From a virus (taxonomy: Duplodnaviria; Caudoviricetes): a stretch of 64,000 bases of DNA. Location of the stretch: the IMG/VR virus record IMGVR_UViG_3300020420_000671. One strand, written 5' to 3'. The notes beneath the pieces are model-generated. The model searched no databases. It was not told the DNA's origin and worked only from the letters and a program-made list of their open reading frames with translations. Below, one piece after another: positions 26,041 to 50,894 of this stretch. Within the stretch, counting starts at the first letter, position 1. Each line of letters begins with the position of its first letter. Both the position numbers and the translations under genes were made by a program.

Positions 26041-26086
26041 TTGATTAATGTGATAAATATATATAACAATGAATTAGGAGTATTAG

Positions 26087-27184
26087 ATGGGTACTTTAAG
26101 ACTTAAAAGAGGAACAAAAGAAGCACTACAAACCAACCCGGGTTTTACACCTGCGGAGGGTGAACTTGTTTATACAACCGATAGCAAAGAGGTATTTGTA
26201 GGCGATGGTGCCACACAAGGTGGCATAGCAGTTTCAGTATCCACACAGAACCTAGAAGATTTAGGTAACGTTCAAGCACTAGCGGCACAAAAAGACCAAA
26301 TATTAGTATATACAGGATCTAATTGGGCGGCGACAGACAATCCAGCAGTAGACATACGTGGTAACATTTACGGTGATGATTCAACACTATTAGTTGATGC
26401 TATCAACGGAAAAATAGTAGGACCAGTTGAAACTTCAACTGTAGCGGCAACTACACTAACAGGAAACCTTACAGGTGATACTAACGGATCACATACAGGC
26501 GGAGTAGTAGGTGATGTTGTAGGTAATGTAGTAGGAACTATCACTGGTTCATTAACAGGTACTATGACCGGTTCAGTGTTTGGTGACGACAGTTCAGGAT
26601 TACTAGTAGACGGTATCAATAACAAAATTACTGGTGCTATTAATGCTATGAATGTTTCAACCTTTGATAATACTATCAACATAGGTACAAAAGTAGCTAA
26701 TCCAGCTTTTAATTATAACACAACGTCAACAAACGGTTCTTTTCCACAATCAACTATACAGATAAGAAATGTACATAACGATGTAACAGCAGACGAATTA
26801 GGTCTTTTCAGATCCAGAGGAACTTTAGGAGCAAGAACAACTGTACAAGCAAATGATGTAATAGGTGGATTTGGTTGGTCAGCATATGATGGAGCATCAG
26901 TTTTAATTGGTGCGAACATGAATAGTGTTATTAATAGTGTTTCCGCTAATAATCTATCAGCAGATTTAATTATTAGAACAAGAAACGGTGCTATATCAAC
27001 ATACGGCGAAGCAATGAGAATCAAAGCAGATAAAGGTGTGACAACAGCAAGTTACGTCCAGTTTGGTAGTTTAACAACTACACAAAGAGATGCTCTAACA
27101 GCCGCGAATGGTATGGTGATATATAATTCTACAGATAATAAGTTCCAAGGCTATGAAAATGGTGCTTGGGCTAATTTAATTTAA
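26087..27184 (+). CDS. Tail fibre / virion appendage protein
   Basis: LKRGT..GELVYTTD.KEVFVGDG N-terminal module, Gly-x-x-x repeats, duplicated GDDS..LLVD.IN.KI motif; ATAAATA at 26053-26059. Confidence 0.7.
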   Translation: MGTLRLKRGTKEALQTNPGFTPAEGELVYTTDSKEVFVGDGATQGGIAVSVSTQNLEDLGNVQALAAQKDQILVYTGSNWAATDNPAVDIRGNIYGDDSTLLVDAINGKIVGPVETSTVAATTLTGNLTGDTNGSHTGGVVGDVVGNVVGTITGSLTGTMTGSVFGDDSSGLLVDGINNKITGAINAMNVSTFDNTINIGTKVANPAFNYNTTSTNGSFPQSTIQIRNVHNDVTADELGLFRSRGTLGARTTVQANDVIGGFGWSAYDGASVLIGANMNSVINSVSANNLSADLIIRTRNGAISTYGEAMRIKADKGVTTASYVQFGSLTTTQRDALTAANGMVIYNSTDNKFQGYENGAWANLI

Positions 27185-27755
27185 ATAATTTACCCTTATC
27201 ATATAAATCAACAATTTCACCAAAAGGTATATCTGTACTAAATTGGCAATGAAATCTATAATCATTTGTCTCGTTTGTAGCATTATGATATTCTAACAAG
27301 TTAAAAATCACAGCAGTATGATCTTGATAATTTATAGTTTCCTGTAATTTAAATTTAGCATTATCGTAATCATTGTACTCCCCCTCCTCTAAAGTCCAAA
27401 ACTTTGTTGGTCCGAAACTACGAATATCTAAAGGATAAACAGGAATACTAATTACACTTACTCTTGGCACAAAAGGATTCTTTTGGTCTACATGAATCTT
27501 TCCTATGGTAAAAGGCGTTTGTCCTAGTATTTCATAGTGTACATCAACCATAAACTTTTTGCCAATTTCATCCATAAGTTCTGTAGGAATCAAATCTCTA
27601 GGACAATACCAATTCCAATCTGTTTTACCATACTTGTCTGGCTTTGTACCAGTATAAGCAAAATTGTCTTTGTGTTTCAGTATATGATCTGCTAATTTAG
27701 ATCTAGTTTCTTTACAGAAAGTTAATTCTTTTATGTGTTGATAATAAGGTCTCAT
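27171..27755 (-). CDS. Putative Fe(II)/2OG-type oxygenase
   Basis: HVD...YHNA...R facial-triad pattern. Confidence 0.55.
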   Translation of the reverse strand: MRPYYQHIKELTFCKETRSKLADHILKHKDNFAYTGTKPDKYGKTDWNWYCPRDLIPTELMDEIGKKFMVDVHYEILGQTPFTIGKIHVDQKNPFVPRVSVISIPVYPLDIRSFGPTKFWTLEEGEYNDYDNAKFKLQETINYQDHTAVIFNLLEYHNATNETNDYRFHCQFSTDIPFGEIVDLYDKGKLFKLN

Positions 27756-28312
27756 TTATTTCTCTCTTTAATTTTTTGCTTAACATCCTCGTAAGAGTCC
27801 TTAGTAAAACGTAATGTATATAACACCCTTTTCATATCAGTTTGAACCGGAACACTATGTGGAATAGTTATGTTTAACAATGCTATGTCATAAAAATCTT
27901 CATTGTAGCCTTTGAATACAACCGGTGTGTGGCCGCCCTGTAGCACAAAATTAATCTTACAGGTAGTTCCAGGATCAGTATGTAGAAGCACCTCTGTGTT
28001 CTTCTCCTGTGTAAGAAAATTTGATTTGATATCATCAGTGTCGCACATTGTTTTAAATAATGCTAATATGCGTCTGCTTTCTGAAATATCAAACTCACTT
28101 GTTTTAGGTTCTCTTGATGCGTTCCAGGATGTCTGCTCTTCCCACCATTGTCCGTTATTCTCAATAAAAGACAAATCATCATTATGTATCTCATCGCTAG
28201 ATCTTGTTAAAAAATTTTGTTTGTTAACAGGTTTGTAATTAAACACCTTTGACTCTTGTAATAGTTTATTTTTATCAAAATCAATTTTAAATTTATATAA
28301 ACAGTTCTCCAT
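27752..28312 (-). CDS. Putative Fe(II)/2OG-type oxygenase (tandem paralog A)
   Basis: HTD...PHSV...KR; same N-terminus as the next gene. Confidence 0.6.
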   Translation of the reverse strand: MENCLYKFKIDFDKNKLLQESKVFNYKPVNKQNFLTRSSDEIHNDDLSFIENNGQWWEEQTSWNASREPKTSEFDISESRRILALFKTMCDTDDIKSNFLTQEKNTEVLLHTDPGTTCKINFVLQGGHTPVVFKGYNEDFYDIALLNITIPHSVPVQTDMKRVLYTLRFTKDSYEDVKQKIKERNK

Positions 28313-28315
28313 TTA

Positions 28316-28888
28316 CTATCTCCACATCGGATAATTATTTTGAATACATTGCTTTATCTCATCGAAAGTATGATGTGTAAAACGTAATTTGAATAATATT
28401 CTATTTTGATCTTTTTGTACTGGCACACTATGATTCACACTTACATTCAATAATGCTGTATCATAATATTCATCTGCGTATCCTTCAAAATTAATAGGAG
28501 TTTGCCCTCCTTCTAAAATAAAATTTATAGCACATAAGGTTCCTACGTCTGTATGTGTAGGTACTTCTGACCCTTGTGTCTGTGTTAAAAAGTTAGCTTT
28601 GATTTTATCTGTTTTACATATTTCTTTCATTAACTTTGTTATACGTATACTCTCTGAAAGATCAACTTTTTCTGACATAGGTTCTCTTGAAGCCGCCCAT
28701 GATTCTTGTTCTGTCCACCATTTATCATCCTTTTCAATAAAAGAAATATCATCGTTAAATTCTATTCCTTCATTGTATATCCATGTTAAAGTCTCTTTGT
28801 TGATCGGTTTATAATTGAAAACCTTAGATTCTTCTATAAGTTTTTCCTTGTCATGATCCATTTTAAATTTATAAAGGCAATTCTCCAT
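28316..28888 (-). CDS. Putative Fe(II)/2OG-type oxygenase (tandem paralog B)
   Basis: HTD...NHSV...NR. Confidence 0.6.
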   Translation of the reverse strand: MENCLYKFKMDHDKEKLIEESKVFNYKPINKETLTWIYNEGIEFNDDISFIEKDDKWWTEQESWAASREPMSEKVDLSESIRITKLMKEICKTDKIKANFLTQTQGSEVPTHTDVGTLCAINFILEGGQTPINFEGYADEYYDTALLNVSVNHSVPVQKDQNRILFKLRFTHHTFDEIKQCIQNNYPMWR

Positions 28889-29599
28889 TTATTTTTTCCT
28901 ACCTAGGTAATACATTCTATTTGCCATATCTAAAGCTACTATATCCCCTGTAGCAAACCAATCATCATATATACAAGTATCTCCTTTTACATAAAGTTCA
29001 TGATCAATTATTTTCCAGTCACAATAAAATTTATTTCCTAAAATTGTATAACCTTCAAAACATCTTTCCTTTACGTATTTTACATATTCTAAATTATCAA
29101 ATTCTATATTAATAGTGATAGGCCCTATTTCACTCATTCCCCAATTTGGTTGTACTATTGCTCCTCTTTCTACAAACGACTCTATCATTTCCCAAGACAC
29201 AGGATCACTTCCACCTAATATTCTTTTTCCAGATAGATCACAATCCTTAAATCCTTTTGTATTCATCAATGCTTTCATTTGAGCAGGTGCTAAGAAAGTA
29301 TGTGTGTAATGTTCTAAATTTTTTAAGAAAGTAAAAGGATTAAATTTATTTAATACTGTTACTTCTGCGTTTACACTAAAAGCTGGTAAACTTTGTGCTA
29401 ATAAACCACCAGCATGACTCATCCTAGTCACAGTTAATATTTTACTGGTTACTGATATTTTCTGAGCTTCTACAGCTACCTTATTTGCCGCTTTGAGATT
29501 TTCTGGTGTTCTAAAAATTTCTTTGGCAGGACCTGTTGTGCCACTACTAGAAATGGTTACACCCTCTTCCAAAATTTTTCCAAAATCAATCATTTTCAT
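28889..29599 (-). CDS. Truncated ANL-superfamily adenylating (AMP-binding) enzyme
   Basis: SSGTTGPAK, WGMSE, TGD, ends at YYLGRKK. Confidence 0.8.
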   Translation of the reverse strand: MKMIDFGKILEEGVTISSSGTTGPAKEIFRTPENLKAANKVAVEAQKISVTSKILTVTRMSHAGGLLAQSLPAFSVNAEVTVLNKFNPFTFLKNLEHYTHTFLAPAQMKALMNTKGFKDCDLSGKRILGGSDPVSWEMIESFVERGAIVQPNWGMSEIGPITINIEFDNLEYVKYVKERCFEGYTILGNKFYCDWKIIDHELYVKGDTCIYDDWFATGDIVALDMANRMYYLGRKK

Positions 29600-30632
29600 A
29601 TCTTTCCAAACTATTATTGATTTGATTATTCACTTTAATAAACGTGCAAAGCTCATATAAGCGGTTTATGTGTTCTGCGCCTACATACGTACATGTACTC
29701 CTTAAACCCCCTTGTAACTGCTTTAAAATGCGTTTAATAGGCCCTTTACAGGGTATTAACAAGTCTCTACCTTCGTTAGGTTTGTAGTCCATTTCGTCTG
29801 GATTTGTTTTATTGTACATTTTGGTACTGCCCAATCCATATAAATTCACATAGTGTTTTCCATCTATTTCTACCTGGTTATCACACTCATCACTACCACT
29901 TACCATACCTGCTATCATAACAATTTTGGCTCCTGCTCCTATTGCTTTCGCAACATCACCCGGAGTTACACAACCTCCATCAGATATAATATCCAATCCA
30001 AATTTTGTTGCTTCAGGATAACAATCCATGATAGCACTCAATTGTGGTACACCGACTCCGACTTCTGATCTTGTTTTACAAGCCGCTCCACTGCCTACAC
30101 CTACCTTTATTAAATTTGCTCCTGCCATTGCTAATTTTTTAATTACTGATGGAGTTGCTATGTTTCCGGCACAAATTTTTATGTGAGGAAATTCTTTTCT
30201 AAATTGTTTAATTGTTTCTACCATTCCTTCAACATTAGCATACACATTAGCAATATCAATATTAATAATTCCTACGTCCGGAAAATGAGATATTATTTTA
30301 ATTGTTTTTTCTCTATCCTTAGGACGCACACCGCTTGTTATAGCAATGTATCTTCTATCTTCTATTTCTTGTAAATGCTTCAGATGATCTTCTAACTTAT
30401 ATTCTTTATGTATGAAAGTAAAAAATCGCAATGGTGTAAGAATTTTTGCTATGTTATATGTGCCAGTGCTTGTCATATTAGCAACTGCGATAGGATGGAC
30501 TGTAGTATCTAACCAGTCAATCTCTATGTTTATATCTTTACGTGTGAGTGATTTAGATGCCTCACGAGGTTCTATTAATACATCTTTAAAGTCTAATTTT
30601 GTATCTTGTTTTACTTTAATATTCATTTTCAT
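29586..30632 (-). CDS. guaC: GMP reductase (IMPDH/GMPR family)
   Basis: LDFKDVLI, KVGVGSGAACKTR, ISDGG, GGLRSTCTYVG; no CBS domains. Confidence 0.8.
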   Translation of the reverse strand: MKMNIKVKQDTKLDFKDVLIEPREASKSLTRKDINIEIDWLDTTVHPIAVANMTSTGTYNIAKILTPLRFFTFIHKEYKLEDHLKHLQEIEDRRYIAITSGVRPKDREKTIKIISHFPDVGIINIDIANVYANVEGMVETIKQFRKEFPHIKICAGNIATPSVIKKLAMAGANLIKVGVGSGAACKTRSEVGVGVPQLSAIMDCYPEATKFGLDIISDGGCVTPGDVAKAIGAGAKIVMIAGMVSGSDECDNQVEIDGKHYVNLYGLGSTKMYNKTNPDEMDYKPNEGRDLLIPCKGPIKRILKQLQGGLRSTCTYVGAEHINRLYELCTFIKVNNQINNSLERYEND

Positions 30633-31548
30633 TCATTTTTACATGTTCATAAAAAGGAGCTAACTTCCAATCTTTTGTAATTCTTCCTCTACGTGTGCTT
30701 CCAGGATCAGGAATACCTACTTCATTATCTGTATCCCAATCTGTTATTTTTACCCATTGCCCTTTGTATCTTTCTTTGTTACTAGGATCTAATGGAAATT
30801 CTATTGTGCCGGGTTCAACTACATTACTATATCTATGAGGCTTACCATAATGACTCCAAATATAATCTTCTGTAAAATTTAATTGATCAGCACAAAGTTT
30901 TACCATGTCCTTCATTTTTAAATTCTCATCAGCTTCTTTTTGATATCTTCCAAGTTGTCCTACATTTTTAAAACGTAAAGTTATATCAGGAACCTTTTCT
31001 CTAGTAATTAAATCGAGAGCGGCCGCTGGTGCTTCTTCATTTATACCTTTAACTAAAATTATTCCTGCGTTCATGTTAAATTTATCTTTACAATTTTTAA
31101 ATGCTTTTATTTTTTTTGTGGCACATCTCATTTCATCTATTTGCTCGTACCAGTCATCATTATCTATTCCATTAAGACTCATGTAAACATGTTTCAATCC
31201 AGTGGCTTCTATTTTATCTACAAAAGATTGGCTAGCCATTCTCAATCCATTTGTAATCAAAATACAATTATGTCCATACTTAAATCCAATGTTTATAAAA
31301 TCTACAAGCTGTGGATGTAGTGTTGGTTCTGCTCCAACGATACGTAGCATAATTGGTTTAGGAAGTTTAGAAACAAATTTTTCATATGGCTCTACTTCCA
31401 TATCAGGTATGAATCTATTTGGAACATAACAGTTTTTACATTCCATATTACAGCGATGAGTTATGTCAGTAACAACATCAAAAAAAGAATTATTTTCAGG
31501 CTCAACTTCATAATAATTCATATTGTTAAGATCTATTTGTTTTGTCAT
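30616..31548 (-). CDS. Radical SAM enzyme (MoaA-like N-terminus)
   Basis: CNMECKNC, GAEPTLHP, ITNG. Confidence 0.85.
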   Translation of the reverse strand: MTKQIDLNNMNYYEVEPENNSFFDVVTDITHRCNMECKNCYVPNRFIPDMEVEPYEKFVSKLPKPIMLRIVGAEPTLHPQLVDFINIGFKYGHNCILITNGLRMASQSFVDKIEATGLKHVYMSLNGIDNDDWYEQIDEMRCATKKIKAFKNCKDKFNMNAGIILVKGINEEAPAAALDLITREKVPDITLRFKNVGQLGRYQKEADENLKMKDMVKLCADQLNFTEDYIWSHYGKPHRYSNVVEPGTIEFPLDPSNKERYKGQWVKITDWDTDNEVGIPDPGSTRRGRITKDWKLAPFYEHVKMNENEY

Positions 31549-31568
31549 ATAGGTGCTCTTTTACAAAG

Positions 31569-31587
31569 TATTTATAGGATATAAATA
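31569..31587. promoter_or_regulatory. Back-to-back T4-late-like promoters
   Basis: TATAAATA on the minus strand (31569-31576) and plus strand (31580-31587) between divergent genes. Confidence 0.65.
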
Positions 31588-31592
31588 TACGT

Positions 31593-32288
31593 ATGTATGA
31601 TGTGAACAAATGGAAAGAATTATATACGCCACATACTGATTATGAAAAAAGTCAGCATAGTGTGATAAGTTTACCTGAAAAGTATAACGTAAATTTACAA
31701 GAAATAGATAAAGGAATAGAATCAGTCCTGAATAATTTTGAGATGGTTGCTTATACTGTAGATACTCCTGTAGGAAAAGTCCAAGTTCCGGGATATTATG
31801 GACTTTGTTTTAAAACAAAATCAAAAACTGTTGATCCTTTAGGTGAAGGCTTGACTAGTAATATACATTCCCATTCAAACATGGACAGTCCTGTAGACAT
31901 AGAATATACAGAAAAAAGTCCTGCTTGGTTTCCATATTTAGATGAAATTGTTGATAAATTTCAAGGACAAGTGACACAGATAAGACTAATAAAATTAGAA
32001 GCAGGACATGATTTATTAAGTAGAGAAAAAACGTCTCATATTGACTATCCGTGGTATAGAGGTATAAGGATTCATATTTGTTTGACTCCTGATGTTGATT
32101 ATGTATGGAGGGTCTTAGATAAAGATTATCATTTCCAAAGATCTAACAAAATGAATTATTTAGATACCGGCAAACCACACGGTGCTGTAAATAATCATAA
32201 TGATAAAGATAGATATGTTTTAAATATAAATCTAGTGCCTAAATTAAATAATCACATTGATTATCAAATTTTAAATCAAATTATTTAA
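31593..32288 (+). CDS. Aspartyl/asparaginyl beta-hydroxylase-like 2OG oxygenase
   Basis: RLIKLEAG, HID, RIHI, LDTGKPHGAVN, DRY. Confidence 0.7.
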   Translation: MYDVNKWKELYTPHTDYEKSQHSVISLPEKYNVNLQEIDKGIESVLNNFEMVAYTVDTPVGKVQVPGYYGLCFKTKSKTVDPLGEGLTSNIHSHSNMDSPVDIEYTEKSPAWFPYLDEIVDKFQGQVTQIRLIKLEAGHDLLSREKTSHIDYPWYRGIRIHICLTPDVDYVWRVLDKDYHFQRSNKMNYLDTGKPHGAVNNHNDKDRYVLNINLVPKLNNHIDYQILNQII

Positions 32289-33789
32289 AAATAGATAGTT
32301 TTTTTTGTTTGTAATCTTCTATTCTTTTATTATTAACAGCACTATACTTTCTTTGTATATACATTTCGTCTAAAGTTAATTCTAATAATTCATCACTATT
32401 TGGAAACTTTCCTATATATTCTGTCATATCAAAGTTAGAGAGTTTTTGTTTAAAGAAATAATCCTTGTGATACATTTCTCCAAACTCTGTAGCCTCTTTG
32501 AAGTTGGTTATATCACTTTCCCAAATCAATGCTCGATTATCAAGTTTATTATTAAGTCTTCCCATAGAATCTGCTTTAAACGGAACGTTGTATCCTTTTT
32601 TAAGTGACCAGTCAATCAACTCTTTATTTTTAGTTGGAAGGTAACCAAATTTTTTCGCATCAACGCTGAAGTCACTGTGTGTCTTTGTATCAGGATCATC
32701 ACTAATATGTAATCCCCAGTAGAAAAAACTTTCCCAATTTTTATTTAACCAGTCCAAACTATTATACCAAGACTCAACAGGTTCATAAGGTAGTCCTGCT
32801 ATCATTCCCACAGTACCTCTATATAAACCTAATCTAGCATTGAACTCATCTCTTATCCACAGTAAGCCTTTTTTTATTTTATCTGGGTGCATTCCTTTGC
32901 CTATTGCCTTTGCGGCTTCAGGATGAAATGTTTCTATCCCATAAAAATGTCCCCAAACTCTTGCTCTAACTAACAATGCAATTTGTTGTGGTCTTGAAAT
33001 TACTAAATCTAACCTTATAAAACAGGTAAAATTTGGTTCGAATGGAAGACGCTCAACAGCCAAAGCTAGTTTTTCTATTTTGCTATCTCTATCGTTAAAA
33101 GTATCGTCACTGATAATATAGTTAGTTGTACCCCATCTTTCATAATTACGCATCATCTCGTTATACATATCATCTTCGGTTCTGCCATAATCTTCCTTTA
33201 CTCCTAAAAAGGCATAGTTACAATACTTACATTTGAATCTACATCCTCTACTTGTTTCTAAAGTAAGTGCTTCATGATTTTGTATGTAATCATGTTCGTG
33301 GTAATTACAATCAAATTTATCTATATCTAGTCCCGCATACATGTGATTTGCATCTACAAGGAAACTGTTAGGTGCCCATTCAGGATATTTTCCTATTGGT
33401 TGTTCTCCGCCTTCGAACATCCAACTTAAAATAGGCATTAATGATTTTTCACTATAACCAAATACCATACAGTCTGCTCCGTAATCCATTTGATAAGGCT
33501 TGGGTCCTCCCATTAAAACTTTAGCTTTAGGATATTCTTTTTTTAAAAAATTAATTTTGTTGAATACCATTGTATCATCCATCCACAAGTTTCCGAAGGC
33601 GAATAGATCGACATCATAAGGTAACGAATCTACAAACTGTTTTACCTCTTTATCTGACCATTTAGATAGCCAATCTATTACTTCAACTGTCCATCCTTGC
33701 GGACGCATCATATCAGCAATTTTATAGGCTCCCATAGTACGTCTGGTAATATCCATTCCGCTGTCGTTAAAGATTACTGCGTATTTCAT
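32281..33789 (-). CDS. Cobalamin-dependent-type radical SAM enzyme
   Basis: N-terminal B12-binding-like region (VLMGGP), ETSRGCRFKCKYC, DDTF, GIETF; start set to MKYAV at 33789. Confidence 0.8.
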   Translation of the reverse strand: MKYAVIFNDSGMDITRRTMGAYKIADMMRPQGWTVEVIDWLSKWSDKEVKQFVDSLPYDVDLFAFGNLWMDDTMVFNKINFLKKEYPKAKVLMGGPKPYQMDYGADCMVFGYSEKSLMPILSWMFEGGEQPIGKYPEWAPNSFLVDANHMYAGLDIDKFDCNYHEHDYIQNHEALTLETSRGCRFKCKYCNYAFLGVKEDYGRTEDDMYNEMMRNYERWGTTNYIISDDTFNDRDSKIEKLALAVERLPFEPNFTCFIRLDLVISRPQQIALLVRARVWGHFYGIETFHPEAAKAIGKGMHPDKIKKGLLWIRDEFNARLGLYRGTVGMIAGLPYEPVESWYNSLDWLNKNWESFFYWGLHISDDPDTKTHSDFSVDAKKFGYLPTKNKELIDWSLKKGYNVPFKADSMGRLNNKLDNRALIWESDITNFKEATEFGEMYHKDYFFKQKLSNFDMTEYIGKFPNSDELLELTLDEMYIQRKYSAVNNKRIEDYKQKKLSIFK

Positions 33790-36316: not shown

Positions 36317-36566
36317 CAAATTTTACCTTCTTTAGTTGCGGATCGTCAGGCAATTTTTTCTTAAGTTCTTTTAATCTATTAATACGCCATTCTAATAATT
36401 TAAAATCAAGAACCCAAGGAAAAATTGCGTGGATAAGACTTCCTATTGTTACTCCAAGTAGAAAAAAGAATTCTGACATTGCTAATTTAAAATGCCACCA
36501 GTATCCAGCATCTTCTCTACCCGCCTTTGCTTTTGCTTCTTTTAAATGTTTAGGATTGTACCACAT
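36309..36566 (-). CDS. Small protein, DUF6356-like
   Basis: HL......YWWHF..A.......IHAIFPW. Confidence 0.55.
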   Translation of the reverse strand: MWYNPKHLKEAKAKAGREDAGYWWHFKLAMSEFFFLLGVTIGSLIHAIFPWVLDFKLLEWRINRLKELKKKLPDDPQLKKVKFDE

Positions 36567-37110
36567 AATTTCCTTTCAGCAAACTTCTACGCCTATTGTA
36601 TTCAGCAATATCTAGTTGCCAAACAGTTTGCTCACAGTTATATAATTCCATATCACAATGTTTTTCTAATATACCTTGCTTTGCTAAAAGACCCATTAAT
36701 CTATGATTGCGGGCCGCTTTACCGTTTGAATGTTCTCGGTAAATGTTTGTAGTAATATATAGCTTATCTGTAGGGCAGTAGTCTATAAAGCGGGGTATAA
36801 ATTCTCTTTGAGTAACGCTGTTCCAGTCACCTTTCCCTAATCCTTTAAAATTATTATTATGAGGCAATTCACAACCCCTAAATAATATTCTCCAAGCATC
36901 TTTGCTTACCTCTGGTAGAGGATGACAACCAGCCACTGCTATGATGTTTCCGTTTTCTACAGCACAAAAGTATTCACCCCATTCTTTTGTTTTTTCGAAT
37001 CTCATTTCTCTCAAACTGCTGTTGTTTACATAACCTAATTCTTTTGCTTTTTTACAAAAGTTTTCTAATTTAGGAATGAGATCATCCGTGATTATTTTAA
37101 CTTCAATCAT
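36550..37110 (-). CDS. GNAT-like acyltransferase
   Basis: YFCAVENGNIIAVAGCH..WRILFRG pattern. Confidence 0.45.
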   Translation of the reverse strand: MIEVKIITDDLIPKLENFCKKAKELGYVNNSSLREMRFEKTKEWGEYFCAVENGNIIAVAGCHPLPEVSKDAWRILFRGCELPHNNNFKGLGKGDWNSVTQREFIPRFIDYCPTDKLYITTNIYREHSNGKAARNHRLMGLLAKQGILEKHCDMELYNCEQTVWQLDIAEYNRRRSLLKGNYVVQS

Positions 37111-37736
37111 AGTGGCATCAAATTTGTTACTATTGTTTCTGCTGTTTTTTCATTAAGTTCAAGATTAACTACTAACCAATAACTATCTTCGTTCGTGCTG
37201 TTGAATAATTGATGTACCTTTGCTGTATTTAAAAAATATAAATGTCCTACACGCCAATTTAAAATTTTATCTTCTAAAACAAACGTACAAGGATTTTTCA
37301 TAGGAGATATTAATCTACAGCTATCTAAATTAAGATGTCGAAAATCTCTATGGGTAGGAAAGTATCCGCCTGGTGCTAATTTTAAAATATGTGTTCTAAA
37401 GAAATGTCCTTCAAATGGCTGTAAAAAATTTTTTATATCGTCATTTTTTGTATACGCATCTGTGTATACATTAAAATCACTCTCTTCATAATTTGTATTA
37501 TTTTCTTGATTGTATTCGTGTAAACTATCTAGATCTGGTATTCCAGATAACCCGCCGTCTAAACTGGTTAGGCTTAATCCGTACCTAGCAATAGGTTTCC
37601 TAGGATTATATTTGACATAGTCAAAATTTTCTTCTGTCCATTTTATATATGTTGTGCTATTAAAATTGAAACCTAGCCTAATAAAATCTCCGTATTGTGT
37701 TATTGTTTGATACAAGCCAGACAAGATATCCTCCAA
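37107..37736 (-). CDS. Aspartyl/asparaginyl beta-hydroxylase-like 2OG oxygenase
   Basis: LKLAPGGYFPTHRD, FLNTAKVHQLFN; the start may be TTG at 37724 after GGAGG. Confidence 0.7.
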   Translation of the reverse strand: MEDILSGLYQTITQYGDFIRLGFNFNSTTYIKWTEENFDYVKYNPRKPIARYGLSLTSLDGGLSGIPDLDSLHEYNQENNTNYEESDFNVYTDAYTKNDDIKNFLQPFEGHFFRTHILKLAPGGYFPTHRDFRHLNLDSCRLISPMKNPCTFVLEDKILNWRVGHLYFLNTAKVHQLFNSTNEDSYWLVVNLELNEKTAETIVTNLMPL

Positions 37737-37746
37737 ATTCTATTCA

Positions 37747-37760
37747 TATAAATATTTATT
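37747..37760. promoter_or_regulatory. Palindromic bidirectional late-promoter-like element
   Basis: TATAAATATTTATT contains the perfect 12 bp palindrome ATAAATATTTAT between divergent genes. Confidence 0.6.
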
Positions 37761-37786
37761 GAACGTATGAAAAGGTTTTAGTCAAT

Positions 37787-38665
37787 ATGAATAGACAAAC
37801 TCAGCTAGAAAATCAAATAAAATTTATGAATTATGACCGTAGTAAAAACATGGACATAATTCGTAATATGCAGAAATGTCAAAGGAATTGGGACTACTCT
37901 AAAAAAATATGGGACGAAATAGTCGAATATTTACTATGGATTGCAGAAAACAGTCCTTCCAAACAATGGGAAGCCTATTACGATGTGTATTGGAGTGCTG
38001 ACCGGAAAGTGATACAAGAAATATCAAGGTATACTTGGGGGTGTACACATAGCAGAAATCCTCCTAGCACATGGAGAAATGCCCAAGCTAATGCTAACAT
38101 GTATATGTTATTTGTTGCCAAAGAGCCTGAAACTCAAGAGAATTGTAATCCCGACGGAACTTTAAAATCTAACACAAAAAATTCTAGATGGGAAAATGCT
38201 TATGTCAGTATAGGTATAGCAATGGGACTTGTAATGCATGCCGCTCATAAATTAGAGATGGTTACAGGTTGTAATAAAAGTCACGGTGATATAAATGGCG
38301 ACATGTTCTGGGAAAAAAGGCTTGGCATTTTAGATGATGTAAAAGCAGGTAGGAAAAAAATTGCTTATGGCATAGGCATAGGTTATCCACAAGCAGACAA
38401 AGAAAGATGGCAAACAGATGAGACAGAATTAGCAATAGGTGCTGGCAACGGAGATACATTAACAACGTTAAATGAAAAAGATCCTAATTGGGTAGATACA
38501 CATATTGATACTGGAAAAACTGTAAGAAAAATTAAGATAGTAAACATAAAAGAAAACACAGAAGCAGTTGATCCTTATGGCAATTTACATCCACTACCTC
38601 TGACCAGTGATATAAAAATCAACACACAAAAAATACGTAAAATCAATGTGACGGAGATTAAATGA
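37787..38665 (+). CDS. Nitroreductase-fold flavoprotein
   Basis: QRNWD, SPSKQ, IGIAMG, GIGIGYP. Confidence 0.6.
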   Translation: MNRQTQLENQIKFMNYDRSKNMDIIRNMQKCQRNWDYSKKIWDEIVEYLLWIAENSPSKQWEAYYDVYWSADRKVIQEISRYTWGCTHSRNPPSTWRNAQANANMYMLFVAKEPETQENCNPDGTLKSNTKNSRWENAYVSIGIAMGLVMHAAHKLEMVTGCNKSHGDINGDMFWEKRLGILDDVKAGRKKIAYGIGIGYPQADKERWQTDETELAIGAGNGDTLTTLNEKDPNWVDTHIDTGKTVRKIKIVNIKENTEAVDPYGNLHPLPLTSDIKINTQKIRKINVTEIK

Positions 38666-39555
38666 TAAACATAGTTGTTACAAGCAAACCATGTGACGGT
38701 TTGTTTTACTATAGTTATGAATACAAATCAGCTTTAAAAAGTCTAGGTATGCCTGTACAAGTTATAGTAATCACACATAGAAAATTTAAGGAACAAGATT
38801 ATTTAGACAGCATAAATGAAAAATATATTCATTGTGAAGATATATTTTTTAACAATTTTAATCCTGAAGAAAATGACACAACTTTAATAATGGGTAGAAG
38901 CATGATGACATTAGGTTATCAAGATTTCAAAGAATATACAGAATCTCAACAGGAAACCTTAAAAAAAGTTTTTAGTAAAAATCTAATAGCAGTATATTCA
39001 GAAAATCATCCTACCAGATATCATCAAGCTGTTGGATTTTTTAATCCTGCGAAAATAATAGATTTATGCGATACAGATGTATATCCAGAAGCGCCTACAG
39101 ACTTACATTTTGAGAAACATATTAACTTTACAATTCATAAAGATATAGTAGATGATGTTAAATTTGAACATTTATTTTTAGGAACTAACGACAAATACTA
39201 TGCTACTGTAAATTCAATAATTAAAGACTATCCTGATCATGGAATTATTACATATGATGAAGATTATATAAATGAAAACAATAATAATGTTTTTGCTCCA
39301 GTCAAAAATATTATGGGAATGTTTAAAACTTATGTATATACTAAAGATACTTTTGATCCAGCACCAAGAATATTTCAAGAATGTAGATATTTTGGTAAGG
39401 AAGTAATTTATCAAAGAGATAAAAGTATAAAAGATGGAGGTAGTGTGTATTGGGATAGAGGCTTGAAAGATCCTGATATATCTAACATAGCAATAGCAAT
39501 AAAACAATTTGCAGGACAGAAGAATGTTGTTCCTGTCAAAAAGGAGCAAGTATGA
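38662..39555 (+). CDS. Hypothetical protein, possibly GT-B-like
   Basis: 297 aa; FDPAPRIFQEC.YFGK resembles a GT-B C-terminal motif (weak). Confidence 0.45.
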   Translation: MINIVVTSKPCDGLFYYSYEYKSALKSLGMPVQVIVITHRKFKEQDYLDSINEKYIHCEDIFFNNFNPEENDTTLIMGRSMMTLGYQDFKEYTESQQETLKKVFSKNLIAVYSENHPTRYHQAVGFFNPAKIIDLCDTDVYPEAPTDLHFEKHINFTIHKDIVDDVKFEHLFLGTNDKYYATVNSIIKDYPDHGIITYDEDYINENNNNVFAPVKNIMGMFKTYVYTKDTFDPAPRIFQECRYFGKEVIYQRDKSIKDGGSVYWDRGLKDPDISNIAIAIKQFAGQKNVVPVKKEQV

Positions 39556-40631
39556 TATCTTACGAAGGTTGGGATAGAGAATATATAGAAAACAAAGATG
39601 CCTACATAGAAATATTTGATATTTTTATGAATCAACTTAATTATGAAGACGCAGACGATTTTGAAAAACAAATAGCAGAATATGTAGGTAGAAAACATGT
39701 TGTCAGTGTTGCTTGTGCTACTGATGCCTTAGGATTTTCTCTGATGAGTCATGGCATAGGACCTGGCGCGGAAGTTTTAGTAACAGACTTCAGTTGGATA
39801 TCTAGTTCATCCTGTATTAGTATGACAGGAGCCACACCTGTGTTTTGCGATATAGATTTAGATTCATATCATATAAGTTTCGATAGTATTAAGCGTATGG
39901 TCAGTCCAAGGACAAAAGCAATAATATACACACACCTATTTGGAAATATGGTTGATGTAACAGAAATAATAGAATTTTGTAAAGAAAACAAAATATTTTT
40001 CATTGAAGATGCCGCACAATCTCTTGGTTCTAGTTATAATAAAGTAAAAGCAGGAAGCATAGGACATTGTAGTTCTTTTAGTTTTAATACAAATAAAGTT
40101 ATAGCAGGCATAAATGGTGGTGGTGTTTTTATGACTGACAATGAAGAAATTGCTAACATAGTGAAGAAGTTAAGAAGACATGGTAAAGATAAAGACTTTG
40201 AAATGATAGGATACAATTCTAGAATGTACGTCCTGAATTCAATGATAATAAAACAACGTATGAAAAATATTGTTGAGACACAAAAAACAAGACAGGAAAT
40301 AGCACAAAAATACAACGAAGCTTTCAAAGATCTTCCTGTAATCACACAGAAGCCCACTCCTATTTTAGATCATAATTTTCATAAGTATACGGTAAGATTT
40401 GAAAACAAAGATATTAGAAAAAAAGTCAAAAACGATTTAAGTCTATCAATACATTATGAACGGCCCTTATCTAAAAACTCAATGTATGAACATTTGAAAT
40501 ATAGAAAAGATGATTGTAAAAATTCTAAACTAGTATCAGATACTATTGTATCACTTCCTGTACATGCTTGGTTAAAGGAAGAAGAAATTAATAAAATAAT
40601 AGATACAGTTAAATCGAACTTTTCCGCATAA
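39552..40631 (+). CDS. DegT/DnrJ/EryC1/StrS sugar aminotransferase
   Basis: VFCDID, HLFG, IEDAAQS, SFSFNTNK, GYNSRM, LPVH. Confidence 0.92.
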   Translation: MISYEGWDREYIENKDAYIEIFDIFMNQLNYEDADDFEKQIAEYVGRKHVVSVACATDALGFSLMSHGIGPGAEVLVTDFSWISSSSCISMTGATPVFCDIDLDSYHISFDSIKRMVSPRTKAIIYTHLFGNMVDVTEIIEFCKENKIFFIEDAAQSLGSSYNKVKAGSIGHCSSFSFNTNKVIAGINGGGVFMTDNEEIANIVKKLRRHGKDKDFEMIGYNSRMYVLNSMIIKQRMKNIVETQKTRQEIAQKYNEAFKDLPVITQKPTPILDHNFHKYTVRFENKDIRKKVKNDLSLSIHYERPLSKNSMYEHLKYRKDDCKNSKLVSDTIVSLPVHAWLKEEEINKIIDTVKSNFSA

Positions 40632-41316
40632 AGTCTTGTATATCTCTTGCGGCAACCATATGTGACCCACGTCCTGGATGTAAACTATCTCTAGCCATAT
40701 CAACAAAAAATGATTTAGTTGTTACTTGATATAAATTTACTCGGTTCCAATTGAAATGAGGAATTTTTTCTATATGCTCACCTTCACATGTAACATGGTA
40801 ATTTTTAATTCCTATTGCGTCTAAATGATATTTCGCCATGTTCATTCTCACTATTGAATCATAACAAGCATCAACGTCATTATGTATATGCTCATAGTAC
40901 GCTAGTGATTTACTTATATTTGTACCCTGGGGAGGTATTCTATTTGTGCCTACTTTCTGAAGATCCATAGGCATAAATCTTTGAATTGCTCCGCCCCTCC
41001 AATTAGCCCTATTCAACCCTTGGAAAACACAATATCTATCAAAATAACTCCACATGATAACTACTATATCCCCTTTTACAAATTTAGTGTGTAGTATTAT
41101 ATCTAGTATATGTTTATTAGAAGCACCAGGGACAGCAAAATTTACGCACTTACGCTTTAGGTTATCGGCAATTAATCTTGGCCAAGCAAATTTACTAGGC
41201 TTTGGTCCATGTTGTCCTACTTTGGTTAGACTAGGATTACCATTTTCATCTATCCAACAATCAGGAAGTCCTTCACCGTATGTGTTACTACAACCAAATG
41301 CTACTAATCTGTCCAT
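40609..41316 (-). CDS. SGNH-like hydrolase or acyltransferase
   Basis: VAFGCSNTYG, GASN, DSLHPG. Confidence 0.6.
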   Translation of the reverse strand: MDRLVAFGCSNTYGEGLPDCWIDENGNPSLTKVGQHGPKPSKFAWPRLIADNLKRKCVNFAVPGASNKHILDIILHTKFVKGDIVVIMWSYFDRYCVFQGLNRANWRGGAIQRFMPMDLQKVGTNRIPPQGTNISKSLAYYEHIHNDVDACYDSIVRMNMAKYHLDAIGIKNYHVTCEGEHIEKIPHFNWNRVNLYQVTTKSFFVDMARDSLHPGRGSHMVAARDIQDFMRKSSI

Positions 41317-41321
41317 GCTAA

Positions 41322-41369
41322 TATTTACCTGCCAGGCTTACGCACACTTAATTTCACGGAAAATAAATA
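41322..41369. promoter_or_regulatory. Divergent late-promoter-like pair
   Basis: TAAATA minus (41322-41327) and AATAAATA plus (41362-41369) between divergent genes. Confidence 0.55.
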
Positions 41370-41387
41370 TTCAAGCAAGAGTTGTAT

Positions 41388-42233
41388 ATGAGAAAACCAA
41401 TAACATTAAAAGAATTAAAAGGTTCAGAATACAGAACAGTAGATTTTTATCTATCAAAATCCTGTAACAAGTCGTGCCACTACTGCACTGCTTGGACACT
41501 TGAAATGCGATATCTACACACAGACATGGATCTAGTACGGACTATACTAAAAGGATTGTCTCCATACAAGACAAGAATATGTTTACTAGGAGGCGAACCT
41601 GGACTGATAAAAAATTTAGATGAGATAATCGCAGAAATAAAGAAGCATGATAATCTAATTCCACAAGTTTTATCAAACAGTTTAGTAAGAAAGTTTTATC
41701 CCCACATACTTGAAGATCCTGAAATAATTTACATAGAACATTTAGTTTTAGATTTTTATGAAGATAGAATAGAAAAACTAGGCAACTGGCCTTTCTTGCC
41801 TATGAATAATAAAAATAACTACAACTTAATAATAGAGACGCCTGGATATTTTAAATACAGAGATAGATTTGATTTGACAGAAATAGATCATGAAAATACG
41901 GAATTCAAGGAATACAATTCTAGATCACCTGATTTTCATAGTGACCATGATATAATACAGGCGCCAGAAATAGAACGTAGGATATGTGCTAAATTTCCAC
42001 AAGTTCCTGTATTTGATTTTGAAATACAAAAGATAAGACATTGTAGTAGAAAAGCCATCGACGGTTCGAGAGAATTTGATATCACTGTAGAAAACATTCA
42101 AAAGATGATGGAATATAAATTATTTGATTTTGAAAAATATTGTACTACTTGTATGGATATCATTCCTCCTAGACCAGAAGCTAGAAGATTTGAAATATTA
42201 GAAAAAATAGCATTGGAAAAAACACCAGTATGA
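41388..42233 (+). CDS. Radical SAM enzyme
   Basis: CNKSCHYC, LLGGEPGL, C-terminal Cys cluster. Confidence 0.8.
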   Translation: MRKPITLKELKGSEYRTVDFYLSKSCNKSCHYCTAWTLEMRYLHTDMDLVRTILKGLSPYKTRICLLGGEPGLIKNLDEIIAEIKKHDNLIPQVLSNSLVRKFYPHILEDPEIIYIEHLVLDFYEDRIEKLGNWPFLPMNNKNNYNLIIETPGYFKYRDRFDLTEIDHENTEFKEYNSRSPDFHSDHDIIQAPEIERRICAKFPQVPVFDFEIQKIRHCSRKAIDGSREFDITVENIQKMMEYKLFDFEKYCTTCMDIIPPRPEARRFEILEKIALEKTPV

Positions 42234-43741
42234 ACATTTATTCAGTAGCTTTAAATATTCATGACCATAATACATATGACGGGATTTTTCATAATCAAAT
42301 TGAACGTCATAACAGAATTAAGCACAACTTAAATTATGAATGGTCACATGATCCTAATCCTAGTAAAAAGTTCTTTAATGAACATGTATTAGACAAATAT
42401 AAAAGTAGAGATGAAAATAATATATTTGCGTTTACTGTATCTAATTTAGGACAAGAATTTGTAACAGATTTAATTAATGAAAATTTTCCTAATAATGACT
42501 TTTTAAAATTTAAACCAAAAAGTTTATGGGAACCATTTTACAATGAATTTGTGTATTATATTGATCATCATCAATCACACGCTACCTATGCTTTTCTCAC
42601 TTCAGGATTTCCAGAAGCTGACATATTAGCAATAGATGGTAGAGGCTGGCAGTTCAATTGTATCTTTATTGGCAAAGATGGTATGATTAAAGACCTGTCT
42701 AATAAGATTCCAATTGGTGGACTATGGAATAGATTAGCTCAGGATATAGGATTTAGATATCTTGACGCAGGCAAAGTAATGGGATTAGCAGGATATGGAA
42801 AATACAACTATCAAACGGATGCTATGATAGAAACTTATCTAATGAATCCTAATCATACACTACCTAGTTTTGCTCCAGAAGTAATTAAAAATAACAAAAG
42901 AGAAGATATAGCTTATACTTTACAATTTAAAACTATAGAACTTATTAAAAAGTATGTGTACCCACTTAAAACCTGCGATAACATTTGTGTAGCAGGAGGA
43001 GTAGCATACAACGGTTATATGAATGAAGAATTGACAACACACTACAAAAACGTTCACGTTCCTCCAGCTGTAGGAGATGAAGGACAAGCACTAGGTACAT
43101 ATATGCACGCCGACTACTATCTAAATGACAACGTACACAAACCCAGTGTATTTGCTGGTAAAGAACAAAAAATATCTACAGATTTATTTACGGGTATGAA
43201 TTTTGAAAAGTGGCCTTTTGAAAAATTAACAACTAAAGTCGCAGAAGAGATAGCAAACGGAAAAATAGTAGGATGGTATCAAGGAAAATCAGAAAGCGGA
43301 AATAGAGCTTTAGGAAATAGAAGTATTCTTGCTGACCCAAGGAATCCAAATATAAAAGATACCATTAATAGAAGAATAAAAAAACGTGAAGACTTTAGAC
43401 CATTTGCTCCAAGTGTTTTAGAAGAACACTATCAAGATTTTTTCCATACAAGTCAACCTAGTCCTTATATGTCAAGAATTATGCCTGTAAAAGTAGACAC
43501 AGTACCTGGTATAACTCATGTAGACGGAACTGCTAGAATACAAACTGTTAATAGACAATTCAACGAAAGATATTATGATTTAATCACTGCTTTCTACAAG
43601 CATACAGGTATACCCATGCTATTGAATACCAGTTTCAACTGCCAAGAACCTATAGTAGAAACTCCAGAAGATGCTTTACAAACTTTTAAAAATAGTGGTT
43701 TAGATTTGTTAGTTTTAGGAGATTATTTGTTATGGAAGTAA
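42230..43741 (+). CDS. Carbamoyltransferase (NodU/CmcH/TobZ family)
   Basis: HHQSHA, GKVMGLAGYG, GGVAYN, GNRSILADP, RPFAP, LLNTSFN. Confidence 0.92.
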   Translation: MNIYSVALNIHDHNTYDGIFHNQIERHNRIKHNLNYEWSHDPNPSKKFFNEHVLDKYKSRDENNIFAFTVSNLGQEFVTDLINENFPNNDFLKFKPKSLWEPFYNEFVYYIDHHQSHATYAFLTSGFPEADILAIDGRGWQFNCIFIGKDGMIKDLSNKIPIGGLWNRLAQDIGFRYLDAGKVMGLAGYGKYNYQTDAMIETYLMNPNHTLPSFAPEVIKNNKREDIAYTLQFKTIELIKKYVYPLKTCDNICVAGGVAYNGYMNEELTTHYKNVHVPPAVGDEGQALGTYMHADYYLNDNVHKPSVFAGKEQKISTDLFTGMNFEKWPFEKLTTKVAEEIANGKIVGWYQGKSESGNRALGNRSILADPRNPNIKDTINRRIKKREDFRPFAPSVLEEHYQDFFHTSQPSPYMSRIMPVKVDTVPGITHVDGTARIQTVNRQFNERYYDLITAFYKHTGIPMLLNTSFNCQEPIVETPEDALQTFKNSGLDLLVLGDYLLWK

Positions 43742-44376
43742 TTAATAAAAATTATTGGAAAGTATGGTGGGAAGGAATACAACATGGCCATGAAATAAAA
43801 GATATCCTTTACAGCGTAGGTCCTGATCAGATGGATTCGAAAATACATCTAGTTGATTGTATTCCGTTAGATGAAATGAAAAAATTTAATGACTTGAAAA
43901 TACATTTATATGGCGGCTGGTATGGTTATCCTTTAATTAATCTTTTGTTGACTAAATTTTTAAATATAGAACATATTACTAACATAGACTTAGATGAAAA
44001 GGCATTGGATCTGTCTAGAAAATACACACAGACACTAGAACTAGAACACAAAGTTTTTTTCAAACATAGGGACGTAAAGGATAAAATAGAAACATCATAC
44101 TATAAAGATAAAGACGTAAGATTAGTGATTAACACATCAAGCGAACACATGGCAGATCTGCCTGATTTAATAGCAAATAAAGATTACACCCCTAACTGTG
44201 TATTTGCTTTACAAAGTAATAATATGTTTCATGTAAAAGATCAACATATTAATTGTTCTAATAATTTAGATGAATTTGTAAAAAAGACTGGACTTACTAA
44301 GATATGGTTTGCTGACACTTACAAAATGTCAAATGGATATGAACGATATACTGTTATTGGCAATCATCGAACTTAG
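43732..44376 (+). CDS. Rossmann-fold methyltransferase-like protein
   Basis: LYGGWYG, NIDLD, INTSSEHM. Confidence 0.5.
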   Translation: MEVINKNYWKVWWEGIQHGHEIKDILYSVGPDQMDSKIHLVDCIPLDEMKKFNDLKIHLYGGWYGYPLINLLLTKFLNIEHITNIDLDEKALDLSRKYTQTLELEHKVFFKHRDVKDKIETSYYKDKDVRLVINTSSEHMADLPDLIANKDYTPNCVFALQSNNMFHVKDQHINCSNNLDEFVKKTGLTKIWFADTYKMSNGYERYTVIGNHRT

Positions 44377-50878: not shown

Positions 50879-50894
50879 TTTACTTCCTTATATT

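Follow-up and report, generated by a model that had tools for sequence, protein, structure and literature searches.

A tailoring-enzyme island between the tail-fibre genes of a marine jumbo phage: predicted late promoters, gene exchange at several scales and a possible role in virion decoration

Introduction

Why does a phage carry a long run of natural-product-like enzymes beside the genes of its tail fibres, what might these enzymes make, and in which units are they passed between phages? These questions are raised by a stretch of viral DNA of 64,000 nucleotides (IMG/VR virus record IMGVR_UViG_3300020420_000671; Duplodnaviria, Caudoviricetes), which is called the window throughout; positions are counted from its first letter. 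A preliminary description of the window had singled out positions 27171 to 44376 as a late island of tailoring enzymes that builds unusual sugars or post-translational decorations for the virion. It had also proposed that the island is tiled from three bidirectional cassettes, each centred on a pair of promoters, and that the cassette is the unit of exchange. Here we compare this island with its relatives in marine DNA and weigh the possible nature of its products.

Results

A block of tailoring enzymes between two sets of tail-fibre genes

The island is an accessory block of 23 kb (27171-49928) with one set of tail-fibre genes on each side. About 30 enzymes of the sugar- and small-molecule-tailoring type are encoded in it, none of them with a predicted membrane segment; the single membrane-like segment of the island belongs to a protein of 85 amino acids (36309-36566). 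The right border at 44376 turned out not to be a natural one. Beyond it the tailoring genes go on along the minus strand to 49928 and include four further glycosyltransferase-like genes, and the block therefore extends to the fibre genes that adjoin it. In the following, 27171-37736 is referred to as module I, 37787-44376 as module II and 44354-49928 as module III. Module III has the direction of the right-hand fibre genes and includes the minus-strand stretch 47460-49928 downstream of them. On the left side the island is met by a convergent fibre-like gene (26087-27184), and the same flank was found in all relatives. The coordinates of all features are collected in Table 1.

Gene layout and late-type promoter boxes

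A map of the open reading frames (ORFs) reproduced exactly the three divergent units and the strand switches that had been described before, including the start of the third plus-strand unit at 41388. The four convergent junctions overlap at their stops by 14 nt (27171-27184, with the fibre-like gene), 8 nt (32281-32288), 23 nt (40609-40631) and 23 nt (44354-44376). Sigma-70-like sites and intrinsic terminators occurred at chance level in the scan, with none at the convergent junctions, and the convergent operons therefore overlap at their stops. For the gene 37107-37736 a start at the TTG at 37724, behind GGAGGA, is more likely.

Each of the three divergent gaps (44, 50 and 65-71 nt) contains two oppositely oriented TAAATA boxes, as had been noted. 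They are located at 31569 (minus) and 31582 (plus) in gap 1, at 37749 (plus) and 37753 (minus) in gap 2 and at 41322 (minus) and 41364 (plus) in gap 3. Five of the six boxes read ATAAATA; the sixth, at 41322, reads GTAAATA and lies within GGTAAATA. Both motifs are rare in the window: TAAATA was observed 79 times with 136 expected, and ATAAATA 11 times on both strands of the 64 kb compared with 40.3 +/- 6.0 in shuffled sequences, which is an about four-fold depletion. Five of these 11 sites are in the island. Eight of the 11 are wholly intergenic, with intergenic DNA making up 3.3% of the window (binomial P about 2e-10), and ten are located 5-32 nt upstream of the gene start they face, including the fibre-type genes at 26087, 50895-52370 and 56323-56934. 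The boxes are held in place in relatives even where the identity of the flanking genes has dropped to 67-75%. Taken together, the depletion of ATAAATA and TAAATA suggests selection against stray late promoters within genes.

The late promoter of phage T4 is TATAAATA. The boxes of the island resemble promoters of the T4/RaK2 type in that the same box precedes structural genes, that there is no -35 element and that sigma-70-like sites are not enriched. They differ in being paired back to back, with a palindromic overlap in gap 2, and in serving what appear to be divergent enzyme operons. In the RaK2-like jumbo phage CBB, ATAAATA in front of structural genes is the predicted late promoter, and a gp55-like sigma factor is encoded (PMC5259590, Buttimer et al. 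2017). The occurrence of the same box before the fibre genes of the window is consistent with the late timing proposed for the island, and we regard the paired boxes as putative late-type promoters.

The starts at 31593 (plus) and 41316 (minus) are exactly 5 nt past a box, and by the T4 rule the predicted +1 would fall on the A of the ATG, giving leaderless transcripts. The spacing at 31593 is kept in two of the synteny classes described below (A and C) and not in a third (B), and we do not rely on this idea.

Exchange occurs at several scales

Thirty related marine loci or contigs and Pelagibacter phage Mosig EXVC030M (MT647606, L029 in our set) were used for comparison. The relatives form five synteny classes and show single-gene insertions and deletions and a mosaic pattern of identity. 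Classes A and B keep the gene order of the window, with one copy of the 27752/28316 gene pair; some of their members lack only the twitch-domain radical S-adenosylmethionine (SAM) gene. In class C the genes for a DegT aminotransferase, a nitroreductase, a radical SAM enzyme, the carbamoyltransferase and the methyltransferase-like protein are co-directional with module I; the genes 37787, 38662 and 40609 are absent and there is no gap 3. Class D and the distant locus L027, whose B12-binding radical SAM enzyme is 56% identical, have neither the gene 31593-32288 nor gap 1. Their module I forms a single operon, which starts with the 2-oxoglutarate (2OG) oxygenase gene and runs unbroken towards the convergent Mtd_N fibre-like gene. 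The gene 31593-32288 is missing in L007, L008, L011 and L027, and its flanking genes abut there. The boxes of gap 1 are conserved in classes A and C, partly conserved in B and absent in D and L027.

A similar picture was obtained at gap 3. In Mosig the genes for DegT, radical SAM enzyme and carbamoyltransferase are adjacent and co-directional; in L031 and L021 they share one direction and are separated by other genes. The position between the DegT and radical SAM genes is free of a reverse-oriented SGNH gene in class C, Mosig, L031 and L021; L021 has an SGNH homologue (35% identical) elsewhere and in the other orientation. Because other lineages carry the same genes as one-direction operons, gaps 1 and 3 are, as judged from gene order, lineage-specific, and each probably arose when one reverse gene was inserted together with a promoter pair into such an operon.

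Gap 2 behaves differently from gaps 1 and 3. In the window and its close relatives, in Mosig and in L027, an operon led by a 2OG oxygenase faces another operon across paired boxes, and the palindrome of overlapping boxes is also present at the homologous Mosig junction. One exact box is left at this place in L021. The divergent junction of L031 is similar, and its minus side begins with an unannotated gene. The partner operon has nitroreductase, GT-B glycosyltransferase and DegT genes in the window and in Mosig, and two radical SAM genes in L027. From this distribution, gap 2 is best described as an old, conserved hinge of putative back-to-back late promoters.

Single genes are also exchanged without a promoter. 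The twitch-domain radical SAM gene 45036-46400 (absent in L016, L017, L022 and L023) and the paralogue 27752-28312 were gained or lost alone, and sliding identity plots revealed allelic replacement of lone genes: 35480-36319 has low identity in class A, and 38662-39555 and 40609-41316 have low identity in class B, the last of these diverging independently of its neighbouring genes. One block of low identity, which begins inside 30616-31548, spans gap 1 as well as the convergent junction that follows.

Modules I and II occur apart. Module I is found without module II in class D and L027, and module II without module I in Mosig and L031, the latter also having module III; they are therefore separate functional sets that are inherited independently. 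The order of at least 11 genes of module I is kept down to 56% identity (range 56%-95%), and such a conserved order implies selection on gene sets. The sole counterpart of module I in Mosig is the 2OG oxygenase at its head (44%), and most module II proteins are 50-57% identical, with 33% for the methyltransferase-like protein. The DNA polymerases of the two phages are about 31% identical, and the comparison of these values suggests that the module was passed laterally from one phage family to another. This transfer probably took place within a shared host range, the host being deduced from the infection of Pelagibacter by Mosig.

Other cargo of the relatives was recorded at L021:14210-15283, L021:17649-19082, L007:1542-3172 and L011:2142-4902. 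The cargo types in relatives comprise a gene resembling flavin-dependent Trp-halogenases, a gene for a TctA transporter subunit, nitroreductases and series of two or three additional radical SAM genes.

Enzyme content of the island

The gene content was checked with Pfam and NCBIfam. The searches bore out a natural-product-like set of tailoring enzymes, with three radical SAM enzymes in the range first described (30616-31548, 32281-33828 and 41388-42233), all with CxxxCxxC and one with a weakly scoring B12 domain, an adenylating enzyme (as a core fragment of 236 amino acids), two aminotransferases (DegT and fold type IV), a carbamoyltransferase and two methyltransferase-like proteins. A fourth radical SAM gene (45036-46400) is located just beyond that range. 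Other parts of the first annotation had to be narrowed. The oxygenases correspond to seven short proteins with HxD...H, one of which was modelled with a 2OG-oxygenase fold; only two of the seven reach a Pfam family (Asp_Arg_Hydrox), and these near or below the cut-off. Profile comparison ties several of the seven together. The label of flavoprotein best fits the nitroreductase-like protein 37787-38665, whereas the IMPDH-fold protein is GMP-reductase-like and no flavoprotein. Behind the acyltransferase there are only weak GNAT and SGNH matches. The first list had omitted five glycosyltransferases, namely the GT-B enzyme 38662-39555 within its range and two GT-A and two GT8-like enzymes beyond it. 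With these enzymes and the DegT aminotransferase in the region, a link to sugar chemistry is likely.

The operon of module I, ancestrally of one direction throughout, starts with the 2OG oxygenase gene, followed by the genes for the GNAT-like protein, the small membrane protein, the fold-IV amine transaminase, two oxygenases, the SAM methyltransferase, the B12 radical SAM enzyme, the radical SAM enzyme, the GMP-reductase-like enzyme, the mini-adenylase and further oxygenases. The tandem oxygenases 27752-28312 and 28316-28888 are 56% identical, and relatives have one copy. In classes A and B this single copy is 71-78% identical to 28316-28888 and 56-60% identical to 27752-28312; the extra copy 27752-28312 is therefore a diverged or imported paralogue and not a recent duplication. 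An AlphaFold2 (AF2) model of 34409-34978 (mean predicted local distance difference test (pLDDT) 92.9) shows a double-stranded beta-helix and matches PiuC, SnoN/SnoK, prolyl hydroxylases and PKHD hydroxylases; H83, D85, H160 and R170 are invariant.

The mini-adenylase 28889-29599 comprises the AMP-binding core (A3 to A8) with the motifs SSGTTGPAK and FATGD, and the N- and C-terminal subdomains are absent. Its length is constant in all relatives (50-94% identity, full coverage), and it therefore represents a distinct mini-adenylase family. The protein 29586-30632 has the features of a GMP reductase (GuaC), a full-length IMPDH/GMPR barrel without CBS insert and with the catalytic Cys, Thr and Glu; it aligns to human GMPR2 over residues 7-340 (257 bits), with the equivalents of Cys186, Thr188 and Glu289 kept. 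The NCBIfam equivalog score is below the cut-off (302 against 397 bits), so the substrate may differ from GMP. With its intact catalytic residues the enzyme recalls ToyE/TubD of the toyocamycin/tubercidin pathways. The fold-IV transaminase 35480-36319 matches (R)-selective amine transaminases best in the PDB (115 bits), followed by branched-chain and D-amino-acid enzymes, and from this ranking its substrate may be a ketone without a carboxylate.

In the putative B12 radical SAM enzyme 32281-33828 the radical SAM core scored 56.6 bits (CRFKCKYC) and the B12-binding domain 22.2 bits, below the cut-off of 32.1; homologues are listed with PF02310. This enzyme has 476 marine homologues. A tblastn search of 50,697 phage records gave no match to it, and no PDB relative was detected by sequence.

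In module II, the trio 41388-44376 occurs in the same order in Mosig. The pair of radical SAM enzyme and carbamoyltransferase is found in this order also in L001, L021 and L031, where the third member is separated or replaced by other genes. Members of the carbamoyltransferase family were returned from thousands of marine contigs of phage size and from no cellular context, and the family is common in cyanophages. For the DegT protein 39552-40631 the PDB matches were scyllo-inositol transaminase (best), QdtB, perosamine synthase and WbpE. The GT-A model gave Foldseek matches to WrtF, RmlT, TarS and PBCV-1 A64R at probability 1.0 and to GT2-like clusters of the AlphaFold Database. The Mosig counterpart of the GT-B enzyme (MT647606, 9415-10281; 51% identical) is annotated as "molybdenum cofactor biosynthesis enzyme", and this deposited name looks wrong.

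PDB sequence profiles for the families of 34409, 38662 and 44354 returned nothing useful, PHROGs assigned no function to ten scanned proteins of unknown function, and Pfam searches with divergent homologues yielded nothing beyond sub-threshold hints of GNAT and Asp_Arg_Hydrox.

The carrier phage and the surroundings of the island

The window has a G+C content of 32-38%. The best matches of its DNA polymerase are those of jumbo myoviruses, with 50% identity to Sinorhizobium phage Phosso, 45% to Agrobacterium phage Atu_ph07 and about 42% to RaK2-like phages. By this gene the carrier is an uncultured marine jumbo myovirus with a polymerase nearest to those of Atu_ph07/RaK2-type phages. Megablast of the island DNA against the 50,697 phage records gave no match; near-identical DNA is contained in marine metagenomes from ten studies, among which may be that of the source sample itself. 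Two seawater metatranscriptomes from different studies contain contigs of 140-179 nt identical to 35047-35186 and 38184-38410, the remaining hits being spurious 18-nt matches, and no RNA sequencing runs were listed for a 10-kb stretch. The contigs hint that the phage is active in the sea; as contigs from RNA libraries they are no proof of transcription, transcript ends or timing.

Beyond the right-hand fibre genes the minus strand carries an ORF of more than 2,300 codons (56956-63999) with a weak FG-GAP repeat match, which is not similar to VrlC of Mosig. A comparison of the flanking fibre genes and large ORFs with the Mosig region, VrlC included, revealed no similarity.

Table 1. Features of the window, listed from left to right
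Feature	Position	Strand	Basis or remark
Family B DNA polymerase	3015-5687	+	Left-hand replication gene
QueE-like gene and exonuclease	Left part of window	+	Among replication genes
Late-type boxes outside the island	26053-26059; 52395-52402; 56953-56959		Upstream of fibre-type genes
Left flank, fibre-like gene with Mtd_N domain	26087-27184	+	Pfam Mtd_N 8.5e-11
Three short HxD...H proteins, 2OG-Fe(II) oxygenase-like	27171-27755; 27752-28312; 28316-28888	-	Motif, profile comparison
Mini adenylating enzyme, 236 aa	28889-29599	-	Pfam AMP-binding 2.4e-14
GMP-reductase-like TIM-barrel enzyme	29586-30632	-	NCBIfam GMP reductase
Radical SAM enzyme, 310 aa	30616-31548	-	CxxxCxxC at residue 33
Divergent gap 1	31549-31592		Back-to-back TATAAATA boxes, 31569-31576 (-) and 31580-31587 (+)
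Lone reverse-oriented 2OG oxygenase gene	31593-32288	+	Pfam Asp_Arg_Hydrox 0.005
Putative B12-binding radical SAM enzyme, putative C-methyltransferase type	32281-33828	-	Pfam Radical_SAM 4.6e-15, B12-binding 1.3e-4
SAM-dependent methyltransferase	33786-34409	-	Pfam Methyltransf_25 1e-15
Two short 2OG-Fe(II) oxygenases	34409-34978; 34975-35517	-	Model, hhalign paralogy
Fold-type IV transaminase	35480-36319	-	Pfam Aminotran_4 3.8e-33
85-aa protein with one membrane-like helix, DUF6356-like, and 186-aa weakly GNAT-like protein	36309-37110	-	
Asp/Asn-hydroxylase-family 2OG oxygenase, first gene of module I operon	37107-37736	-	Pfam 4.7e-5; positional counterpart in Mosig
Divergent gap 2, hinge	37737-37786		Overlapping palindromic boxes, 37747-37759
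Nitroreductase-like protein, putative flavoprotein	37787-38665	+	Atlas features 0.97 to viral clusters with PF00881; Mosig nitroreductase 56% identical
GT-B-fold glycosyltransferase	38662-39555	+	Atlas structure search, TM 0.61-0.68 to GT4/GT1 clusters; Mosig 51%
DegT-family sugar or inositol aminotransferase	39552-40631	+	Pfam 3e-86; NCBIfam LegC/PseC-like below cut-off
Lone reverse-oriented SGNH/GDSL-like gene	40609-41316	-	Pfam Lipase_GDSL 5.9e-4
Divergent gap 3	41317-41387		GGTAAATA 41322-41329 (-); AATAAATA 41362-41369 (+)
Radical SAM enzyme	41388-42233	+	Pfam; Mosig 53%
NodU/TobZ-family carbamoyltransferase	42230-43741	+	Pfam; Mosig 57%
Methyltransferase-like protein	43732-44376	+	Pfam; Mosig 33%
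Paralogous GT-A-fold glycosyltransferases	44354-45043; 46393-47316	-	AF2 pLDDT 86
Twitch-domain radical SAM gene	45036-46400	-	NCBIfam N_Twi_rSAM 305 bits, above cut-off
173-aa and 114-aa proteins without assigned function	Within 47460-49928	-	Ends of GT8-like stretch
GT8-like paralogues	47968-48768; 48761-49591	-	Family profile matches glycogenin (GT8), E 3e-5
Right flank, fibre genes	49964-56934	-	Peptidase_G2 chaperone domain 50895-52370, tail Collar domain 54233-56323

Discussion

The best reading of the island, which we give about an even chance, is late glycan tailoring, in which a modified sugar would be passed to an acceptor that can be reached from the cytoplasm, most likely the virion's own fibre proteins. 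Late in infection the enzymes of modules II and III would make and transfer a sugar that is aminated, carbamoylated and methylated, and the likeliest acceptors would be virion proteins, fibre proteins among them, whose genes flank the island. Module I would supply or tailor a further substituent by amination of a ketone, C- and O/N-methylation, hydroxylation and adenylate-dependent ligation. The linkage to the fibres is provided by the Mtd_N, Collar and Peptidase_G2 genes which flank the island and by module III, which follows directly downstream of fibre genes in the same direction. A Pfam search of the island proteins detected no flippase, polymerase or polyprenol-linked transferase. Decoration of the virion, as put forward in the preliminary description, is thus a plausible function on the gene content.

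Several points weigh against this proposal. The island contains no nucleotide-sugar-making enzyme (nucleotidyltransferase or 4,6-dehydratase), and module I has no clear link to sugars. The GMP-reductase-like enzyme, the amine transaminase and the adenylase could equally serve a product derived from nucleotides or amino acids. Since either of modules I and II can be present without the other, a single product need not draw on both. In print, similar islands have been read as a means of changing the host surface and not of decorating the virion (PMC7029224).

The last view leads to a rival explanation, which we consider unlikely and which nevertheless survives best: the enzymes may remodel the host envelope, altering precursors of the lipopolysaccharide (LPS) or capsule of the infected cell and thereby blocking superinfection or the sticking of progeny to debris. 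It is the published view of the homologous region in SAR11 myophages (PMC7029224), and several enzymes of the island (GT8-like and GT2-like transferases, a DegT aminotransferase, a carbamoyltransferase) are of kinds that typically belong to pathways for O-antigen and core. However, the roughly 30 proteins include no membrane enzyme, flippase, polymerase or ligase, and module I has no LPS-like members. The late-type promoters, which are common with the fibre genes, would also leave little time for turnover of the cell surface.

It is rather improbable, in our estimate, that the three promoter-centred bidirectional cassettes are the units which phages exchange. Comparative genomics, applied to look for their gain and loss, revealed exchange on different scales, for the most part without regard to the cassettes. 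Against the idea as first stated speak relatives in which gaps 1 and 3 are missing and the same genes form one-direction operons, the insertion, deletion and replacement of single genes without promoters, and identity breakpoints inside genes and across junctions. What stands is the paired-box hinge of gap 2, which is shared with Mosig and L027 while the operon on its other side varies, with a similar junction in L031. In addition, two single genes seem to have arrived with their promoter pair. An analogue for early genes is known from T4-type phages, in which PeSL (promoter early stem-loop) cassettes, consisting of an early promoter and a stem-loop terminator, were proposed to mediate shuffling at module borders (PMC2839356, Arbiol et al. 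2010; PMC4122927, Comeau et al. 2014). The island shares with them a short conserved regulatory motif at a module border and a hinge with different partners on one side. In contrast to PeSL cassettes its boxes are late-type, stem-loops and terminators are lacking, and many exchanges bypass the boxes.

The absence of any common pathway is improbable as well. According to this explanation unrelated auxiliary genes pile up at a spot next to the fibre genes that tolerates recombination. Frequent gain, loss and replacement of single genes and the differing content of relatives (extra radical SAM enzymes, nitroreductases, a halogenase, a TctA transporter) fit such a process, and the seven paralogous oxygenases suggest expansion more than a fixed pathway. 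The retention of at least 11 module I genes in order down to 56% identity speaks against it, as does the order of module II, which is held across phage families whose polymerases are 31% identical.

Least probable of these alternatives, and quite doubtful, is a soluble small molecule or modified nucleotide of the aminoglycoside or nucleoside type, or a 7-deazapurine derivative, which would be made late without any protein being decorated. The GMP-reductase-like enzyme with its intact catalytic residues, the QueE-like gene 10 kb upstream, the best PDB match of the DegT enzyme to a scyllo-inositol transaminase and the combination of a TobZ/NodU-family carbamoyltransferase with a B12 radical SAM enzyme would suit it, and a cyanophage paper names similar genes "antibiotic synthesis genes" (PMC12801897). 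Unlike the clusters for aminoglycoside and nucleoside natural products, however, the island ORFs contain, by Pfam and NCBIfam, no scaffold-forming enzyme such as 2-deoxy-scyllo-inosose synthase, no exporter and no gene for self-resistance. The five glycosyltransferases and the linkage to the fibres point to a polymer or protein as acceptor, and the separate inheritance of modules I and II is a further objection. A ribosomally synthesized and post-translationally modified peptide, which the protein hydroxylases, radical SAM enzymes and nitroreductase could bring to mind, was set aside, since no precursor peptide or leader-recognition domain was seen, although no systematic search was made.

Among known systems the island is closest to the host recognition cluster of pelagimyophages and cyanomyophages, which combines fibres, glycosyltransferases (GT8 being prominent), LPS-type genes and radical SAM cassettes (PMC7029224, Zaragoza-Solas et al. 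2020). Both are variable blocks beside tail-fibre genes with glycosyltransferases, LPS-type sugar enzymes and radical SAM genes. The likeness to Mosig is more specific and includes the hinge of 2OG oxygenase and nitroreductase genes with the same palindromic late box, as well as homologues of GT-B, DegT, radical SAM, carbamoyltransferase, methyltransferase and nitroreductase proteins with 33-57% identity and partly the same order. On the other hand, our island resides in a jumbo lineage, its module I apart from the leading 2OG oxygenase is absent from Mosig, and it has two extra strand switches. It also does not occupy the position between VrlC and gp14 in a T4-like (Kyanoviridae-type) genome. 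The jumbo-type polymerase and the lack of similarity to VrlC indicate that an island of this kind is present here in another lineage of phages.

For glycosylation of virions by viral enzymes the chlorovirus PBCV-1, with A64R, is a known example. The island is similar to such systems in that soluble viral glycosyltransferases are encoded beside structural genes, and its GT-A model has A64R among its best PDB matches. It differs in its far larger set of enzymes, which adds radical SAM, B12, 2OG and carbamoyl chemistry. Glycans on the capsid and the tail tube of mycobacteriophages are mentioned in PMC12619734 where it cites Freeman et al. 2023.

A bolder version of the proposal joins promoter and product. 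The back-to-back, partly palindromic late-promoter box might be a portable hinge by which whole enzyme operons are swapped between unrelated lineages of marine myophages, this jumbo phage and Kyanoviridae pelagimyophages, probably in shared SAR11-type hosts, and the modules might build a carbamoylated, C-methylated amino-sugar glycan on the phage's own fibres. We rate this combination as a long shot. If it were true, the phage would make a glycan for its fibres by radical SAM and B12 chemistry, which is not known from any virion.

Variable islands adjacent to fibre genes are thought to shape the host range of the most abundant marine phages. The presence of the same enzyme module in a jumbo phage and in the cultured Pelagibacter myophage Mosig, with HTCC1062 as host, provides an experimental handle on such islands. 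The second, conserved 11-gene module (module I) is common in seawater and, for its B12 radical SAM enzyme, has no counterpart among the isolated phages in the records searched. Its fold-IV amine transaminase, its small 2OG oxygenases and the truncated adenylase are of possible interest for biocatalysis. The combination of enzymes without predicted membrane segments and late-type promoters makes decoration of the virion testable against the reading of these islands as a device for changing the host surface.

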